Assembly (NCBI GenBank): GCA_963422205.2
Contig: CAXMWX010000003.1
Span: forward strand, 257,565 to 321,564
DNA: 64,000 nt
Reading direction: 5' to 3'
Source: Gammaproteobacteria bacterium
GTDB lineage: Bacteria; Pseudomonadota; Gammaproteobacteria; Eutrophobiales; Eutrophobiaceae
This document shows positions 23,153 to 63,100 of this stretch, piece after piece (within the stretch, counting starts at the first letter, position 1; each line of letters opens with the position of its first letter). The notes under the pieces are model-generated. The model ran no database searches. It saw nothing but the letters and a program-made list of their open reading frames with translations, and was not told where the DNA came from. Both the position numbers and the translations under genes were made by a program.

Positions 23153-23271
23153 TTTTATTGGATGTGTCAAGCCTTAAACCAGTATATGCTGTCTGGCTGT
23201 TTTTCCACTGTGCCCCAAACCAGCCGTGCAGGCGTTACATGTAAAAGGAAGGGTCCCAGGAAGGTATCCGA

Positions 23272-23377
23272 AAAGAGACCGGGGTTTCGCTTTAATCATT
23301 GCCGTGATAACCTACATCAGATTATTTTGACAATGTTTCGTGAGAAGCCAATTTAATCACTTAAGTTCCTAAGGGCC
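23272..23377 (+). mobile_element. Right-end remnant of an IS1595-family (IS1016-like) element
   Basis: Encodes FRFNHCRDNLHQIILTMFREKPI*, paralogous to 25992-26114, followed by the IR-like CACTTAAGTTCCTAAGGGCC (compare 26108-26127). Confidence 0.8.
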
Positions 23378-23405: not shown

Positions 23406-24788
23406 ATGAAAAACGACTTTAAACGCGTTTTCAAATGCCCTCCATGGGAGCCAGACAATCTAGATGAGGATGCTGTCAAAGACTTTACGAATAATGGAAT
23501 GATTGATCCGAATGCTGGTCCCCCAACGCCTGCAACTGCAAATCAGGGATCAATACCCGCTGGCTATACCTATTTCGGGCAATTTGTTGATCATGACCTG
23601 ACCTTTGACCAGACCGCCCTTGAAAATGCAGGGCAGGAGACCAGGCACGGCAGTATCCGAAATCACAGAACGCCTGTCCTTGATCTTGATAGTGTCTACG
23701 CCGGGGTAATTACAGATCACCTGTTTGTTTTTGAAGAAGGAGATTTTTCTGATTTGCCGAGGAGACAAGACGAGACAGCAATAATCGGTGATCCTAGAAA
23801 TGATGAAAATGCCATTATTGCACAGCTTCATCTGGCCTTTATGCGGGCTCATAACACCCTCATGTCCCGTCTTGCAGGTGATCGCGGCATTGCCTTTGCC
23901 AAGTCACGACGCATTCTGACATGGCTGTATCAGTGGATTGTGGTCAATGACTTCCTGCCCAGAATTATTCACGACGATGTATATGACTTGGCTTTCGTGT
24001 CAAGCGGCAAAACAGGCGGAAATATCAAATTCAATGTGACGAAATCAGAAATTCCCTTTGAGTTTGCCTTCGCAGCCTATCGCTTTGGGCATTCAATGGT
24101 ACGCGACAGCTATCAGACCAACAATTTCTCTGGATTTAATGCAGGGTTTAATACATTCATCAGGATATTTGATGCTGCATCGCAGGATGATTTACGGGGT
24201 GGCAGAGTTCTGACCAAACGTCGCATTATTCAATGGGACTGGTTTCTTGAAATGGGAAATACAGGCCCTTTCCCGCAGAAAGCCATGCCGATTGACACAA
24301 AACTGGTCAGGGCCTTAAGTGAATTGCAGGAACACCCTATTCCCGGTCAAATTGATAATATCCTGGCAACACGCAATATTCTGCGTGGTATACGCGTTGG
24401 TGTCCCCGATGCAGGGTGCGTTGTGACAGAAGTAGGAAAATTCTTGCACGTAACTGGCGTTGCAGTACCTGCTTTTGCGACTATTTCCGCCGGAACTACA
24501 GGCATTACTAGGGAAATGCATCATTCCCTATGGTACTACATCCTCAAAGAAGCAGAAGTACAGGGTAATGGTAAACTGGGGGTTGTTGGCTCGACAATTC
24601 TTGCCTTTACTTTTCTCTGGGTACTAAGGAACACAGAAAATTCCTACTTCAATCTTGAGCCCGGCTGGAAACCAGACAATGATCTTCAAAAAAACGGCGG
24701 ACCTTTAATTGCAGATGATGATAACCGGGATGATCCAAACTGGTCACTCGCCAGCATCATCAGGCTTTCCGGCTTACGAGTTACTTGA
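23406..24788 (+). CDS. Animal haem peroxidase (peroxidase-cyclooxygenase superfamily) protein
   Basis: GYTYFGQFVDHDLT (distal Q/DH), LDLDSVY, GDPRNDEN (distal R), AYRFGHSMVR (proximal H), RNILRG, LWYYILKEAE; GGGAG RBS; no signal peptide evident. Confidence 0.9.
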   Translation: MKNDFKRVFKCPPWEPDNLDEDAVKDFTNNGMIDPNAGPPTPATANQGSIPAGYTYFGQFVDHDLTFDQTALENAGQETRHGSIRNHRTPVLDLDSVYAGVITDHLFVFEEGDFSDLPRRQDETAIIGDPRNDENAIIAQLHLAFMRAHNTLMSRLAGDRGIAFAKSRRILTWLYQWIVVNDFLPRIIHDDVYDLAFVSSGKTGGNIKFNVTKSEIPFEFAFAAYRFGHSMVRDSYQTNNFSGFNAGFNTFIRIFDAASQDDLRGGRVLTKRRIIQWDWFLEMGNTGPFPQKAMPIDTKLVRALSELQEHPIPGQIDNILATRNILRGIRVGVPDAGCVVTEVGKFLHVTGVAVPAFATISAGTTGITREMHHSLWYYILKEAEVQGNGKLGVVGSTILAFTFLWVLRNTENSYFNLEPGWKPDNDLQKNGGPLIADDDNRDDPNWSLASIIRLSGLRVT

Positions 24789-24844: not shown

Positions 24845-25339
24845 GGGGAATAGGGTTCTGTCTCTTTGTTAGAGAGAAAATAGCAGGAAGCGAATCATCA
24901 AATCGTCACGATATCCTTGTCGCTTTATACAATATCCCCATGAGGCATCGAATCGATGAACGATGTTACGATGTCGTTTTCTCAAAGCTCAAAGAAGTAT
25001 CGGGAAGCCCTCAGCAAATAAACCCATTGCGCCGCATAACACGATCTACGTTACCATCGAGATCATCCACAAGAAGTGAGTCGCCGGGCTGAAGAATTCG
25101 GTCAATGATCGGGTCGGGCTACACACAATCGGTCCAGCCGATGTTTGATGGTGTGACTAACTTGATCGTGCATTATTGGATCAATGTGCGGCGTACCCTT
25201 GGCCGCGAATTGCGGCACTTTGCTGCAACGAAGTCGGCTACCAAGGGTTCTAGTCTGTCTGGATCATCACTGCAGCAAAACAGACCAAAAACAGCAAGAG
25301 TCTTGGAAGTTAAGCGCCAGTGAACAGGTGCTACGCTTC

Positions 25340-25369
25340 CCTGTCTGCGTGCTGACACGCACAGGTAGG
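25340..25369 (+). repeat. 30-bp hairpin mini-element, copy 1
   Basis: CCTGTCTGCGTGCTGACACGCACAGGTAGG. Confidence 0.85.
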
Positions 25370-25711
25370 TGAAATGACTAGGGAAAACAGGCATTCCATC
25401 CGTTCCTTAAATCACCGAGCAGAATGTTCGGAAACTGATCCGCTGTTTTGCCCTGGAGTTGACCGCCTCCGACAGTGCCCGATTGACCGGCATTCGCCTG
25501 AGCTCGGTACACCCGATTTCCCTCAAACTGCGCCAGCGCATCGCGGATTTTTGTGAACAACAATCGCCCTTTGTCGGCGCGGTCGAAGTGAATGAATCCT
25601 GCTTTGACCCGCAGCGCGGTCGCGGTGCCAAGCAGAAAACCCTCGTCTTTGGTCTACTCCAGCGCCACGGGCAGCGGTTCACGGAGATCCTGCCCGATGC
25701 CCGCAACGCCA

Positions 25712-25738
25712 CCTGTCTGCGTGCATCGCACAGGCAGG
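25712..25738 (+). repeat. 27-bp hairpin mini-element, copy 2 (in-frame insertion in the transposase)
   Basis: CCTGTCTGCGTGCATCGCACAGGCAGG; removing it restores GCC ACA CTG (..NATLPAVIRG). Confidence 0.85.
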
Positions 25739-26059
25739 CACTGCCAGCGGTGATCCGGGGAAAAGTCGCGCCCGAGAGCATGATCCACTCCGATGGTTGG
25801 CGGGGTGATCATGGCCTAGTCGATATGGGCTACGTCAGGCACTTTCGGGTTGCACACGGGGCCAATGCGTTTGCCAACCAGCCCAGTCACATCCATGGCA
25901 TGGAGTCGTTCTGGGCCTCATACCATATTGAGCCAAACGGCGGCTGAGTGCCAGCAAAGGCATTTGTAGAGAGAGGTTTTATGATCATCTCAAAGAGACC
26001 GAATTTCGATTTAATCATCGCCGTGATACCCTCTATCAGGTTATCTTGAAACTGCTTCG

Positions 26060-26089
26060 CCTGCCTGTGCGTGTCCGCACGCAGACAGG
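26060..26089 (-). repeat. 30-bp hairpin mini-element, copy 3 (inverted, in frame)
   Basis: Reverse complement CCTGTCTGCGTGCGGACACGCACAGGCAGG; the paralogous empty site TTCG|TGAGAAGCCAAT is at 23337-23352. Confidence 0.9.
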
Positions 26090-26230
26090 TGAGAAGCCAA
26101 TGCAGACCGCTTAACTTCCTAAGAGTCAAAATTTATATCAATGCGACAGGACTCCAGGGCTGAGTTGCAGCAAGACAGCGCATCATCTAAAATGGCTATC
26201 GTTGTCAGATGTCCTGATGGAGTAGCCGGA

Positions 26231-60100: not shown

Positions 60101-63100
60101 CCACCACCAGTGGCAGCAGCACGATAACCACCACCAGTGGTGGCACCCTCACCCTGACGGCAGCCGATACCCTGACCCTGGCCGATGCCACCAGTACGAG
60201 CGATACAGCAACGGCGGACATCATGGCAGACGGGGCAGTCGACCTGACCGGTACGGGCGGCATCAGCATCTCTGGCGACATCACCACCACCAACGATAAC
60301 ATCACTTTCAACTCCGCCACCACCTTGACCGGCGCTGTGGCATTGAACACCGGGTCGGGGGCAGGCGACATCAGCTTCAGCAGCACGGTGAATGGCGCTG
60401 ACGCCCTGACCTTAACCGCCGGTACAGGCAACATCAGATTCACCGGGGCAGTGGGCGGCAGCACCGCCCTGGGCGCTGTCACCATCCGCAGTGCCAGAGA
60501 TGTCACCCTGGCAGCGGTCACAGCCGCCAGCCTGACCCAGGAGGGGACTTCTGCTGGCACGGCGGGCGGCACCGGCACCACCACCCTGGGCGGTAATCTG
60601 ACCATCGGCGGTAACGTCAACCTCAACACCAACACCATCACCACCACCAGTGGCAGCAGCACGATAACCACCACCAGTGGTGGCACCCTCACCCTGACGG
60701 CAGCCGATACCCTGACCCTGGCCGATGCCACCAGTACGAGCGATACAGCAACGGCGGACATCATGGCAGACGGGGCAGTCGACCTGACCGGTACGGGCGG
60801 CATCCGTATTTCCGGCGACATCACCACCAACGATAACATCACTTTCAACTCCGCCACCACCTTGACCGGCGCTGTGGCATTGAACACCGGGTCGGGGGCG
60901 GGCAACATCACGTTCAGCAGCACCGTTGAAGGCACCACGGCCGGCGCTGACGCCCTGACCTTAACCGCCGGTATGGGCGACATTACGATGACCGGGGTGG
61001 TGGGCGGCAGCACCGCCCTGGGCGCTGTCACCATCCGCAGTGCCAGAGATGTCACCCTGGCAGCGGTCACAGCCGCCAGCCTGACCCAGGAGGGGACTTC
61101 TGCTGGCACGGCGGGCGGCACCGGCACCACCACCCTGGGCGGCAATCTGACCACCAGCACGGCCACAGGCGTGAACATCATCACCAGTGCCATCGCTGTC
61201 AACAACACCATCACCACCACCACGGGCAATGGGACAGTCACGCTCAATGCCAGTGGCAGCACCAGCCCAGCCCTGACCCTGGCCGATGCCACCAGTACGA
61301 GCGATACAGCAACGGCGGACATCATGGCGGGCGGGGCAGTCGACCTGACCGGTACGGGCGGCATCAGCATCTCTGGCGACATCACCACCACCAACGATAA
61401 CATCACTTTCAACTCCGCCACCACCTTGACCGGCGCTGTGGCATTGAACACCGGTACGGGGGCAGGCGACATCAGCTTCAGCAGCACGGTGAATGGCGCT
61501 CACGCCCTGACCTTAACCGCCGGTATGGGCGACATTACGATGACCGGGGTGGTGGGCGGCAGCACCGCCCTGGGCGCTGTCACCATCCGCAGTGCCAGAG
61601 ATGTCACCCTGGCAGCGGTCACAGCCGCCAGCCTGACCCAGGAGGGGACTTCTGCTGGCACGGCGGGCGGCACCGGCACCACCACCCTGGGCGGCAATCT
61701 GACCACCAGCACGGCCACAGGCGTGAACATCATCACCAGTGCCATCGCTGTCAACAACACCATCACCACCACCACGGGCAATGGGACAGTCACGCTCAAT
61801 GCCAGTGGCAGCACCAGCCCAGCCCTGACCCTGGCCGATGCCACCAGTACGAGCGATACAGCAACGGCGGACATCATGGCGGGCGGGGCAGTCGACCTGA
61901 CCGGTACGGGCGGCATCAGCATCTCTGGCGACATCACCACCACCAACGATAACATCACTTTCAACTCCGCCACCACCTTGACCGGCGCTGTGGCATTGAA
62001 CACCGGTACGGGGGCAGGCAACATCAGCTTCAGCAGCACCGTTGAAGGCACCACGGCCGACGCTGACGCCCTGACCTTAACCGCCGGTATGGGCGACATT
62101 ACGATGACCGGGGTGGTGGGCGGCAGCACCGCCCTGGGCGCTGTCACCATCCGCAGTGCCAGAGATGTCACCCTGGCAGCGGTCACAGCCGCCAGCCTGA
62201 CCCAGGAGGGGACTTCTGCTGGCACGGCGGGCGGCACCGGCACCACCACCCTGGGCGGCAATCTGACCACCAGCACGGCCACAGGCGTGAACATCATCAC
62301 CAGTGCCATCGCTGTCAACAACACCATCACCACCACCACGGGCAATGGGACAGTCACGCTCAATGCCAGTGGCAGCACCAGCCCAGCCCTGACCCTGGCC
62401 GATGCCACCAGTACGAGCGATACAGCAACGGCGGACATCATGGCGGGCGGGGCAGTCGACCTGACCGGTACGGGCGGCATCAGCATCTCTGGCGACATCA
62501 CCACCACCAACGATAACATCACTTTCAACTCCGCCACCACCTTGACCGGCGCTGTGGCATTGAACACCGGTACGGGGGCGGGCAACATCAGCTTCAGCAG
62601 CACCGTTGAAGGCACCACGGCCGACGCTGACGCCCTGACCTTAACCGCCGGTATGGGCGACATTACGATGACCGGGGTGGTGGGCGGCAGCACCGCCCTG
62701 GGCGCTGTCACCATCCGCAGTGCCAGAGATGTCACCCTGGCAGCGGTCACAGCCGCCAGCCTGACCCAGGAGGGGACTTCTGCTGGCACGGCGGGCGGCA
62801 CCGGCACCACCACCCTGGGCGGCAATCTGACCACCAGCACGGCCACAGGCGTGAACATCATCACCAGTGCCATCGCTGTCAACAACACCATCACCACCAC
62901 CACGGGCAATGGGACAGTCACGCTCAATGCCAGTGGCAGCACCAGCCCAGCCCTGACCTTGGCCGATGCCACCAGTACGAGCGATACAGCAACGGCGGAC
63001 ATCATGGCGGGCGGGGCAGTCGACCTGACCGGTACGGGCGGCATCAGCATCTCTGGCGACATCACCACCACCAACGATAACATCACTTTCAACTCCGCCA

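Follow-up and report, generated by a model that had tools for sequence, protein, structure and literature searches.

Hairpins of mostly 27 or 30 nt form a family whose members insert precisely and without target duplication, multiply within genomes, nest in one another, and recur with nearly unchanged sequence in many phyla. Three of them lie within one insertion sequence (IS) of the window, by which we mean the whole 64-kb stretch of DNA analyzed here. On balance, we favor the reading that this is a gene-less hairpin insertion element which, in the source genome, is a passenger of ISs, and which elsewhere owes its mobility to a trans-acting enzyme that works on single strands.

Hairpin copies in the window

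The window copies share the form CCTGTCTGCG-loop-CGCACAGG(C/T)AGG (n = 3). Copy 1 (25340-25369, forward strand) is 30 nt long, with loop CTGACA and the right arm CGCACAGGTAGG, in which T stands for C; copy 2 (25712-25738, forward strand) is 27 nt long with loop CAT; and copy 3 (26060-26089, reverse strand) is 30 nt long with loop CGGACA on the element strand. The preliminary description placed three copies here and none elsewhere in the window, and our pattern scan agrees: a degenerate two-arm pattern matches in the 64-kb window at copies 1–3 only (five match rows for three places, as two copies match on both strands), against a chance expectation of 0.00 from 100 dinucleotide-preserving shuffles. 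The exact 12-mer left arm is likewise confined to these copies in the window, and left-arm matches with two mismatches are at chance level (9, compared to 6.41 expected). Folded as DNA (−7.1 to −10.2 kcal/mol), the three copies form hairpins of 10–12 bp that are interrupted by a 2-nt bulge; the palindromes are imperfect. An Rfam search with the hairpin returned no match at E values up to 1.

The host is a degenerate IS1595-family (ISXO2-like) IS at 25305-26119 on the forward strand (Pfam DDE_Tnp_IS1595, E = 3.7e-9), bounded by the terminal inverted repeats GGAAGTTAAGCG (25305-25316) and CGCTTAACTTCC (26108-26119); one homologue, P0019, is named “IS1595 family transposase” in its source record. 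The transposase gene of this IS is disrupted by stop codons as well as by a frameshift and a short deletion. Copy 1 lies outside that gene: it is found in the 5′ untranslated stretch of the IS, 24 nt inward of the left inverted repeat, and the ATG at 25374 follows it 4 nt downstream; copy 2 is translated as CLRASHRQA in the transposase frame and copy 3 as LPVRVRTQTG near the transposase C-terminus.

Empty sites for the window copies

The copies in the window are precise insertions without target duplication. An aligned 3′ fragment at about 23230-23369 (forward strand), a paralogue derived from a related IS1595-family element, has the empty site for copy 3: it reads ...atgtttc|gtgagaagcc..., the 30 nt of copy 3 and nothing else being missing, with the junction at 23339/23340 or 23340/23341 (a one-base ambiguity), and comparison with it reveals no target duplication at the copy 3 site. 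In protein alignment, both CLRASHRQA and LPVRVRTQTG are absent as clean gaps from all eight intact IS1595-family homologues (51–60% identity). The earlier claims that copies 2 and 3 are insertions, that they add these peptides, and that no flanking bases are duplicated therefore stand; “frame-preserving” describes the 27- and 30-nt forms but not a related 26-nt copy, which lies in a second IS and is discussed below.

Two further ideas were dropped. About 11–13 unrelated, frame-shifting bases at 25919-25931 (forward strand) occupy the site of a fourth hairpin in a paralogue (C3:306530-306559); as a hairpin footprint they are unconvincing, the similarity to a remnant being weak at ∼8/16 bases. 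A tyrosine-recombinase core site (12+6+12) was set aside because the arms are non-equivalent and empty sites exist.

Copies in the source genome

The source genome has 15 exact and 25 near-exact hairpin copies. All 25 lie in two IS families, the IS1595 family and an rve-type (IS481-like) family, and none of the 25 lies outside an IS. They occupy seven sites, six of them within transposase genes, and the sites are common to diverged paralogues: copies 1 and 2 recur at the same sites in a paralogue that is ∼88% identical, the copy 3 site is also filled in C9:104707, C11:257995, and C3:59288, and the hairpins of ∼88% identical paralogues carry matching point changes. Hairpins held in common by IS paralogues indicate insertions older than the IS divergence and inherited with the ISs, and the same seven sites in diverged paralogues indicate that the copies arrived and multiplied as IS passengers. 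The copies of this genome are therefore most likely old passengers of ISs and not local insertions, and the proposal of three insertions into one IS copy must be given up, because the same sites are filled in the paralogues. An activity that targets ISs would equally place every copy in ISs, and passenger status is what we infer.

There is no sign of current hairpin activity in the source genome, which has no match to Y1_Tnp, no Y1/HUH gene, and no hairpin copy outside ISs. The preliminary description suggested that the element might favor foreign DNA; the location of all 25 copies in ISs agrees with this, but in other genomes the hairpins lie mostly outside ISs, so that the apparent preference is more simply read as hitch-hiking. 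For the window alone the result is accordingly modest, namely three old passengers of a dead IS and no local system.

One hairpin copy of 26 nt shifts the frame of the rve-type transposase, and the frame-shifted IS is still present at no fewer than seven copies of 97–99.8% identity. Several rearrangements in this genome have their end points precisely at the edges of hairpins: at C3:301608, a deletion has removed two hairpins entirely, its ends being the first base of one and the last base of the other; at C3:59288, the two IS families are joined with one shared hairpin; and a deletion between two neighboring hairpins has left one (C9:98392, C12:7955). The host IS was also found in two sequencing runs of one study, possibly of the source sample, on short-read contigs that are broken at the hairpins; empty-site contigs were not seen in those two runs, though contigs cannot reveal rare alleles.

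Distribution across phyla, viruses, and a plasmid

Scanning other metagenome-assembled genomes (MAGs) for further copies, as had been proposed, uncovered at least 113 stretches in one-genome-per-species contigs, from ∼97 assemblies (counted by accession prefix) under more than 20 phylum-level names. A further 36 stretches lie in viral contigs, and one canonical copy lies on plasmid pSTJ1 of a cultured strain, Sulfuricystis multivorans J5B; the plasmid search gave three weak matches, of which the one inspected is this true copy and the other two were judged chance by their E values. The element is thus not peculiar to one IS or lineage. Within the 60 relatives of the source genome that were searched it is found in three; cultured phage records gave no match, and no cyanobacterium is named in the record titles of the 113 loci listed.

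Lengths among the 113 loci listed are 27 nt (58 loci), 30 (37), 29 (8), 26 (7), 28 (2), and 31 (1), and overall the element spans ∼24–31 nt. The consensus is (G)CCTGTCTGCG-loop-CGCA[CA]GGCAGG(C), also given as (G)CCTGTCTGCG...CGCACAGGCAGG(C), with a conserved foot, a 2-nt bulge in the right arm, and a variable loop, while the flanks differ at nearly all of the 113 loci listed. Records outside the source genome are nearly all MAGs, such that single assignments (e.g. one archaeal contig) may be binning errors; yet the presence of copies in long complete chromosomes, the in-frame copies in essential genes, and the differing flanks argue against contamination or a shared vector, and for a real cross-phylum family. 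ISs, phages, and plasmids would be its vehicles between phyla.

Copy number and target sites

Bursts of copies are found in other genomes, five of which hold 59, 61, 45, 22, and 10 exact copies (59 in G061, 61 in G062, and 22 in the complete chromosome G064); the complete 5.4-Mb chromosome G066 has 49. One loop variant is dominant in each genome, making up 34 of the 59 copies in G061 and 27 of 36 among the matches listed in G062. At nine loci (L036, L050, L056, L080, L082, L086, L101, L110, and L126), one copy is nested within another, in its loop or in the upper part of its stem; inverted pairs stand ∼100 bp apart in some cases, and many copies lie at contig ends.

The element is mostly inserted directly before C(A/G): of the 112 loci listed, 93 have C as the 3′ flank and 90 have a purine immediately 5′ of the element. 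The flanks form a stem of at least 5 bp at 10 of the 113 loci listed, compared to 7 of 422 control positions. Along the complete chromosomes G066 and G064, no replichore pattern in the strands of the copies was obvious by eye.

Copies within genes

Pfam matches place hairpins within dnaN (two copies), a RecJ-like gene, IS91-family transposases, and capsid, terminase, and portal ORFs of phages; transposase ORFs with a hairpin in other genomes are of the IS91-family, ISLre2-like (UPF0236), IS5-like (DUF772), and IS256 types. In coding regions the hairpin is tolerated as 9–10 extra residues. Outside the source genome, a Pfam domain is found in 12 of the 105 longest hairpin-spanning ORFs, with the hairpin upstream of the domain in about half; because so few spanning ORFs have a domain, most copies outside the source genome are probably non-coding. 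An estimate that placed hairpins in long ORFs at the same rate as control positions was rejected as inflated by spurious GC-rich ORFs, which the Pfam analysis corrects.

A capsid gene of a phage supplies an independent empty site. The hairpin is present in only 2 of 80 homologous viral loci (the query contig and a 100%-identical twin), and its nine residues are absent from all 13 correctly extracted close homologues. At the DNA level, seven loci have the empty site ...TT|CGG..., with no duplication; the pattern missed the site in six further loci. Insertion is therefore established in three ways, by the paralogue in the window, by the eight of eight IS1595 homologues, and by the phage capsid gene.

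Comparison with known repeats

The closest known kind comprises small dispersed hairpin repeats or untagged REP-like ones. The SDR families attributed to Elhai et al. 2008 are reportedly dispersed predicted hairpins of 21–27 nt, found inside genes and nested in repeats; their insertion is said to be supported by filled and empty sites, and the families to be confined to a few cyanobacteria. We know of no transposase for SDR. Compared by description, our hairpin resembles them in size class (24–30 nt, against 21–27 nt for SDR), hairpin form, dispersal, filled and empty sites, nesting in repeats, and intragenic copies, and differs in being near-identical across its range, which takes in a plasmid and viral contigs besides more than 20 phyla. 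The SDR repeats of heterocyst-forming cyanobacteria are cited in passages of PMC3116915, PMC2884548, and PMC3733652.

REP superfamilies are tagged GTAG or CGTC, according to passages of Di Nocera et al. 2013 (PMC3733652) and Bertels and Rainey 2011 (PMC3116915). Like REPs and REPINs, our hairpin is an oriented, short, imperfect palindrome of REP size and dispersal (25 copies in the source genome and 10–61 exact copies in others), with occasional inverted pairs or clusters, some intragenic copies, and presumed single-strand recognition. It differs in that neither tag occurs in its consensus or in the flank profile of the 112 loci listed, as had been noted for the window copies; no RAYT gene is flanked by it; it is not species-specific; and many copies are single units, the empty sites showing inserts of a single 27/30-nt unit. 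A MITE has the terminal inverted repeats of a parent IS, a target duplication, and a length of 70–300 bp, whereas the hairpin has 24–31 nt and its empty sites, of three kinds, are all free of duplication.

Rickettsia palindromic elements (RPEs) are ∼100–150 bp long, are not known outside Rickettsia, and lie in-frame in protein-coding genes as an extra peptide; to our knowledge, no transposase is assigned to them. The hairpin is similarly inserted in-frame into genes and read as peptide, but it spans phyla, and at 24–30 nt it is far shorter than RPEs, as the preliminary description stated. RPEs are mentioned in a passage of PMC3733652.

The NTS/SRM hairpins of 20–50 nt, paired with Ssn GIY-YIG single-strand nucleases, are described in passages of Chenal et al. 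2025 (PMC11893778). They, too, are hairpin repeats found over many phyla and oriented by non-palindromic parts, and they occur in the same genomes as our hairpin: canonical SRM copies stand beside it at L154 and around it at L026, where it lies in the loop of a canonical SRM hairpin, as perhaps also at L029. Our hairpin has a different sequence, however, from which the SRM flank CGTCATTCC...GGAATC is absent; the Ssn-like gene that we examined has canonical SRM flanks, and the hairpin-rich genomes G062, G064, and G066 lack small GIY-YIG genes.

The proposal of an undescribed system must consequently be qualified. The kind is known, from very small dispersed hairpin repeats and intragenic REPs, but for this family and its cross-phylum spread no published account was found in the literature searched, where two 12-mers searched as text retrieved unrelated primers only.

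Search for a partner enzyme

The suggestion of an enzyme encoded elsewhere agrees with the element being gene-less, so that any enzyme must act in trans, yet no partner enzyme was found. Genes consistently flanked by the element (HUH/Y1, GIY-YIG) did not turn up in the genomes searched. Four of the five rich genomes searched have Y1_Tnp genes, and in none of nine genomes searched is such a gene flanked by the hairpin, which lies within 1.5 kb of 2 of 12 Y1 loci, at no fixed place; G066 has an intact Y1 gene without a flanking hairpin, and G064 only a 44-residue Y1 fragment. GIY-YIG matches in G062, G064, and G066 are of UvrC size only, and the Ssn-like gene of G061 (at L154) has the canonical NTS/SRM hairpin on its flanks in place of ours. 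When ORFs within 300–600 bp of the 113 loci listed were clustered, no family recurred at more than two loci; recurrence of neighbors in the 36 viral stretches is attributable to related phages; and paired hairpins in 18 regions of the rich genomes enclose ordinary genes, IS transposases, and hairpin clusters, with no small nuclease among them.

Possible mechanisms

Under our favored reading, the element would not have transposed in the source genome, its multiplication there being due to ISs that carry hairpins. Elsewhere, a trans-acting enzyme would recognize the folded single strand, which is the weakest step of the explanation; it would cut at both hairpin feet and join the hairpin into single-stranded targets, such as the loops of extruded hairpins, and might belong to a class resembling HUH/Y1 or Ssn-type hairpin nucleases. 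The rearrangement end points exactly on hairpin edges in the source genome count for cutting and joining at the feet, and the fruitless partner search counts against a trans enzyme; a replication-coupled single-strand mechanism would predict a replichore pattern, and none was obvious by eye in the strands of the copies.

Two alternatives concern the ISs. An activity in the source genome or its recent ancestors could insert the hairpin preferentially into ISs or foreign DNA, possibly as a defence-like inactivation of transposases, as the 25 copies at seven different sites of two unrelated IS families, the frameshift caused by the 26-nt copy, and the IS91-family, ISLre2-like, IS5-like, and IS256-type ORFs that carry the hairpin elsewhere would suggest. 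We consider this unlikely: the copies are old, being common to ∼88% identical paralogues along with their point changes; the frame-shifted IS nonetheless multiplied; the source genome shows no candidate enzyme; and the other genomes also have copies in phage structural genes, in dnaN and a RecJ-like gene, and at many sites that look non-coding, with transposase families in only 2 of the 105 longest spanning ORFs from the loci listed, or ∼5 of the 113 loci listed when other frames are counted. Alternatively, the hairpins, far from being insertions, could be native functional parts of the IS (a regulatory RNA hairpin or a 12+6+12-type recombination site), in keeping with the same places being occupied in several IS copies and with rearrangement junctions located at hairpins. 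This is highly improbable given the paralogous empty site, the phage capsid empty sites, the eight of eight intact homologues without the peptides, the identical sequence in more than 100 unrelated contexts, the 2-nt bulge that makes the arms non-equivalent, and the negative Rfam search.

Other readings accept mobility and differ from ours in the agent. Mobilization by a RAYT, a Y1 HUH transposase of the IS200 group, with the hairpin as a REP/REPIN family, would account for a REP-size imperfect palindrome with a bulge, for tens of dispersed copies, and for the inverted pairs, and intragenic REPs are known (in a passage of Di Nocera et al. 2013, PMC3733652); it becomes rather improbable in view of the missing GTAG/CGTC tag, the lack of any hairpin-flanked Y1_Tnp gene in the nine genomes searched and of any Y1_Tnp at all in the source genome, the mere Y1 fragment in a complete chromosome with 22 copies, and a near-identity across phyla that is unlike species-specific REP/RAYT pairs. 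The hairpin could instead be a divergent “Ssn-related motif”, serving as partner repeat to a small GIY-YIG single-strand nuclease of the Ssn type, since such nucleases of varied specificity pair with hairpin repeats of 20–50 nt (in a passage of PMC11893778) and canonical SRM hairpins co-occur with ours and even enclose it; with no oriented flank of the CGTCATTCC type, canonical SRM copies flanking the one Ssn-like gene examined, and GIY-YIG genes of UvrC size only in the complete chromosomes with 49 and 22 copies and in G062 with its 61, this seems quite improbable. Finally, there might be no dedicated enzyme, the copies arising where replication or repair is halted by a hairpin and the nascent strand switches template to another hairpin, or by short-patch gene conversion, in line with the lack of an enzyme in complete genomes, the enrichment of copies at the apex of inverted repeats, and the one base (C) common to the element start and the target. 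Yet one base of microhomology is very little, the boundaries are identical to the base at unrelated sites, and the genome-specific single-variant bursts and end points exactly at the feet fit an enzyme better, so that we hold such an origin to be improbable as well.

Implications

Going beyond our favored reading, we offer as a tentative possibility that the hairpin is among the smallest mobile DNAs, multiplies in bacteria of more than 20 phyla, perhaps in archaea, and in their viruses, travels between them in ISs, phages, and plasmids, and depends on an enzyme class new to repeats or a conserved host function; this would explain both the same sequence in distant hosts and the lack of a RAYT or Ssn partner. 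If truly mobile across phyla, the element sets a lower bound on the size of a transposable unit, points to an enzyme or a pathway of the host that acts on folded single strands of DNA, and could mark gene flow between distant microbes. The hairpins also lengthen phage capsid proteins and essential proteins such as that of dnaN by extra peptides, break assemblies, as the many copies at contig ends indicate, and create end points for deletions and for fusions between unrelated ISs.

Hairpin copies in the window

The three hairpin copies of the preliminary description were recovered where it had placed them, all in a degenerate, 815-bp IS1595-family element (25305–26119) with terminal repeats GGAAGTTAAGCG and CGCTTAACTTCC. 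Copy 1 (25340–25369, 30 nt) lies 4 nt 5′ of the transposase start codon, copy 2 (25712–25738, 27 nt) is translated as CLRASHRQA, and copy 3 (26060–26089, 30 nt, opposite orientation) is translated as LPVRVRTQTG. No other copy was found in the window by pattern: the degenerate two-arm pattern has just three matches across the 64 kb, against 0.00 expected on 100 shuffled sequences, and the exact left arm does not occur beyond these copies. Folded as single-stranded DNA, each copy is predicted to form a 10–12 bp stem (−7.1 to −10.2 kcal/mol) with a T·G pair and a 2-nt bulge in the right arm, so that the hairpin is oriented and not a perfect palindrome. The host element matches the Pfam family DDE_Tnp_IS1595, with one homologue annotated by a source as IS1595 family transposase; the transposase gene of the window element is broken.

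The copies had also been described as insertions without target duplication, and two comparisons bear this out. Both peptides are clean gaps in 8/8 intact homologues (protein alignment, 51–60% identity), and a paralogous 3′ fragment at about 23230–23369 is an exact empty site for copy 3, from which exactly 30 nt are missing, with flanking bases unduplicated and a 1-base ambiguity. The broader interpretation, of a minimal mobile or templated-insertion system served by an enzyme encoded elsewhere, is supported in part: our verdict is that the three window copies were carried along long ago by an IS that is now dead, and that they are members of a widespread, apparently undescribed family of tiny hairpin insertion elements. 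Adjoining the IS fragment is a 460-residue ORF (23406–24788, + strand) with the stretch YFGQFVDHDLTFD, read by eye, which presumably marks a resemblance to haem peroxidases of animal type.

Copies in the rest of the source genome

In the source genome (14 contigs, 2.99 Mb), the exact hairpin pattern gives 15 matches as compared to 0 for a reversed control, and allowing up to two mismatches per arm yields 25 copies, a cut-off that more diverged copies escape. All 25 lie within sequence of two IS families. The IS1595-family element has four hairpin sites, named a1–a4, of which a1 is filled in 3/3 and a2 in 2/2 of the copies retaining the site, a3 in 4/5 (the sole empty one is the window's fragment), and a4 in a single copy. 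An rve-type, IS481-like element, whose rve match of 28.1 bits falls under the Pfam cut-off, has three sites, b1–b3, with b3 a 26-nt variant. Because the IS1595-family paralogues are about 88% identical, with point changes of their own in the hairpins, the insertions predate divergence of the IS copies. The rve-type IS is present in at least seven copies at 97–99.8% identity, all with b3 (contig C7:403861–403886, L010:2102–2127, and this site in at least seven others), which shifts the transposase frame; when b3 is removed in silico, ...STIGR and LIADTP... fall in one frame. This IS multiplied despite the frame-shifting hairpin; its transposase may be expressed in split form, may rely on frameshifting at the hairpin, or may be helped in trans. 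We infer that the hairpins of this genome are passengers inherited with the ISs and see no sign of activity; no match to Y1_Tnp was found in the genome. An IS-targeting activity is kept as a rival origin for these copies, as it would yield the same picture, with every copy in an IS.

Several junctions in this genome coincide exactly with hairpin edges, with REARRANGEMENTS at the feet. At C3:301608 (C3:301560–301660), one copy of the rve-type IS has a deletion from the first base of b1 through the last base of b3, 629 bp away, and retains neither hairpin; two junction bases differ from expectation. Two diverged copies (C9:98392 and C12:7955) have a single hairpin with the flank of b1 on its left and that of b2 on its right, and at C3:59288 an IS1595-type element end leads through one hairpin into the interior of an rve-type element. 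At C7:345042, rve-type IS homology begins at the right edge of b3, and an IS1595 copy of a relative (locus L016) has a similar deletion ending at a hairpin. The junctions that retain one hairpin could have arisen by recombination between 30-bp repeats; the one that retains none could not.

Another mini-repeat, GGTTCGRCARGCTCACC, occurs 33 times when up to 2 mismatches are allowed, on contigs C3, C7, C8, C9, and C12 (e.g. L010:1409–1425, C7:403168–403184); judged by their flanks, all are in rve-type IS copies or fragments, with 3–4 sites per copy. One, by our reading of the sequence, breaks into the transposase frame, and a short form of the IS has lost 206 bp, two hairpins included, by deletion between two copies of this repeat. 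Also frequent in the genome are a ∼36-nt repeat containing ...CTTCAATGAGGCCGAAGCGTAATGCTTCGGAATAC (about 163 occurrences by k-mer count), probably a large CRISPR array, the heptamer tandem repeat AGACCGC, and long C runs.

Distribution among genomes

The preliminary description had proposed a scan of other MAGs, which showed the family to extend far beyond the source genome. Three of 60 relatives carry the hairpin, with 2–3 copies apiece, and a cross-species scan (185 579 species, each represented by a single genome, pattern CTGTCTGCG-N3-10-CGCACAGRCAGG) retrieved at least 113 hairpin stretches from at least ∼97 assemblies, counted by accession prefix. Record titles of the matches listed name more than 20 phylum-level groups, although single taxon assignments may be wrong because nearly all records are MAGs: Desulfobacterota in the wide sense, Planctomycetota including anammox bacteria, Methylomirabilota, Verrucomicrobiota, Kiritimatiellae, Lentisphaerae, Latescibacterota, Nitrospirota, Nitrospinota, Chloroflexota, Firmicutes, Spirochaetota, Zeta-, Alpha-, Beta-, and Gammaproteobacteria, WOR-3, Bipolaricaulota, Patescibacteria, Actinomycetota, Bacteroidales, and one Methanosarcinales contig. 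Three complete chromosomes (3.5–5.8 Mb) among these matches carry 22, 49, and 13 copies. Exact copies in five genomes picked from the matches number 59, 61, 45, 22, and 10, which are undercounts because many copies lie within 200 nt of contig ends. A single loop variant dominates per genome (34/59 in G061, 27/36 among rows listed in G062, and 10/22 in the complete chromosome G064), which fits multiplication within each genome.

Insertion specificity and candidate mechanism

Lengths were tabulated modulo three, as had been suggested, and are multiples of three in 95/113 matches listed: with the preceding C counted, 58 are 27 nt, 37 are 30 nt, 8 are 29 nt, 7 are 26 nt, 2 are 28 nt, and 1 is 31 nt. 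Loops vary among them, with TGCAA in 19, TGCGA in 12, TGCGGACA in 11, and many others, and the flanks differ at nearly all loci. For 112 of these matches, the first base on the 3′ side is C in 93 and the second is A/G in 79; on the 5′ side a purine adjoins in 90 and the base before it is non-A in 107. It is clear from the empty sites that the target includes at least the flanking C. Nine loci among the matches listed have a copy in another's loop or upper stem, in either orientation, at sites including TTG|CAC and GCA|CGC, and flank stems of at least 5 bp occur at 10/113 loci versus 7/422 control positions. A Latescibacterota chromosome has sister hairpins that keep the foot CTG(Y)CTGC...GCAGGCAG and differ in their inner stems, so the foot is the conserved part.

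Two side cases concern such subfamilies. In the complete chromosome G066, at least nine hairpins, some belonging to this family and others to sister subfamilies with a common foot and differing inner stems, lie within 1.75 kb (about 2180–3930 of L207, C1:4020000–4025200), like mosaic clusters of REPs. At one site shared by two copies of a repeat (L017 and L020, genome G019, contig C156), the hairpins belong to different subfamilies, with identical foot and non-identical inner stem; either insertion was repeated at one target or the inner part was replaced.

A single 27/30-nt unit inserts precisely and without duplication at a weak target, purine|C purine, with a liking for loops; it multiplies in within-genome bursts, and rearrangement end points fall at its feet. 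An enzyme acting in trans might recognise the folded strand, and this putative enzyme would cut at both feet and paste into single-stranded DNA.

Genes consistently flanked by the element, the search for which had been proposed, were not found among Y1_Tnp genes, GIY-YIG genes, or recurrent neighbours. Y1_Tnp matches (RAYT or IS200-type) number one each in G061, G062, and G064, the last a 44-residue fragment only, and 19 in G065; the hairpin is within 1.5 kb at only 2/12 Y1_Tnp loci, in no fixed place, and the intact Y1 gene of G066 is flanked by other hairpins. An Ssn-like GIY-YIG gene of G061 is flanked not by this hairpin but by canonical NTS/SRM copies, as described for ssn-type genes by Chenal et al. 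2025 (PMC11893778), and GIY-YIG matches in G062, G064, and G066 are all of UvrC size. No small nuclease gene lies between paired hairpins in the regions examined, no protein recurs near more than two of the loci among the matches listed, and the strands of the copies along two chromosomes, judged by eye, follow no obvious replichore pattern.

Comparison with known elements

Among described kinds, cyanobacterial small dispersed repeats, reportedly the subject of work by Elhai et al. in 2008, appear to be the nearest. Next nearest are ‘untagged’ REP-like stem-loops, mentioned by Di Nocera et al. 2013 (PMC3733652). The element does not fit REP/RAYT (no tag and, in the genomes examined, no RAYT flanked by the hairpin), Ssn/SRM (a different sequence and, in the genomes examined, no ssn gene flanked by the hairpin), MITEs (the hairpin is too short and makes no duplication), and RPEs (again too short). 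Rfam 15 gave no match, and neither a text search on both arms nor word searches found the family in the literature covered, beyond which subscription journals or supplements may describe it.

Placement relative to genes and vehicles

A first ORF-based estimate of coding copies was too high, inflated by spurious GC-rich frames, and was discarded. Since only 12 of the 105 longest hairpin-spanning ORFs among the matches listed have a Pfam domain (E ≤1e-4), with the hairpin 5′ of the domain in about half of the 12, most copies are probably non-coding, in many cases a short way 5′ of a gene. Genes that clearly have the hairpin inside are dnaN of a Firmicutes MAG (two copies, one of them in an inter-domain linker), a RecJ-like gene, and ISLre2-like and IS5-like transposases. 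IS91-family transposases also contain the hairpin, one being disrupted by a 29-nt copy, and by position only there are hairpins within a Cas4–Cas1 fusion ORF and a molybdopterin-oxidoreductase-like ORF.

Viral contigs hold 36 hairpin stretches, and none was found in cultured phage records. The hairpin falls in phage ORFs whose domains are those of capsid, terminase, and portal proteins. Of 80 viral loci homologous to the capsid ORF, two have the hairpin, one being the contig of the query itself and the other its twin, 100% identical; the 9-residue peptide LSACNAQAG is absent from 13/13 correctly extracted close homologues (a 14th row, in the wrong frame, was left out). In DNA, seven loci show the empty site ...TT|CGG... 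with no duplication, and the pattern gave no site in six others. The element could plausibly be carried from host to host by ISs, phages, and plasmids. The one true copy in plasmid records is on pSTJ1 of the cultured strain Sulfuricystis multivorans J5B, which could serve for experiments; canonical and 27 nt long (L305:1502–1528, NZ_AP018719.1 about 62204–62231), it occupies the apex of a 13–14-bp inverted repeat immediately 5′ of an HTH-domain gene.
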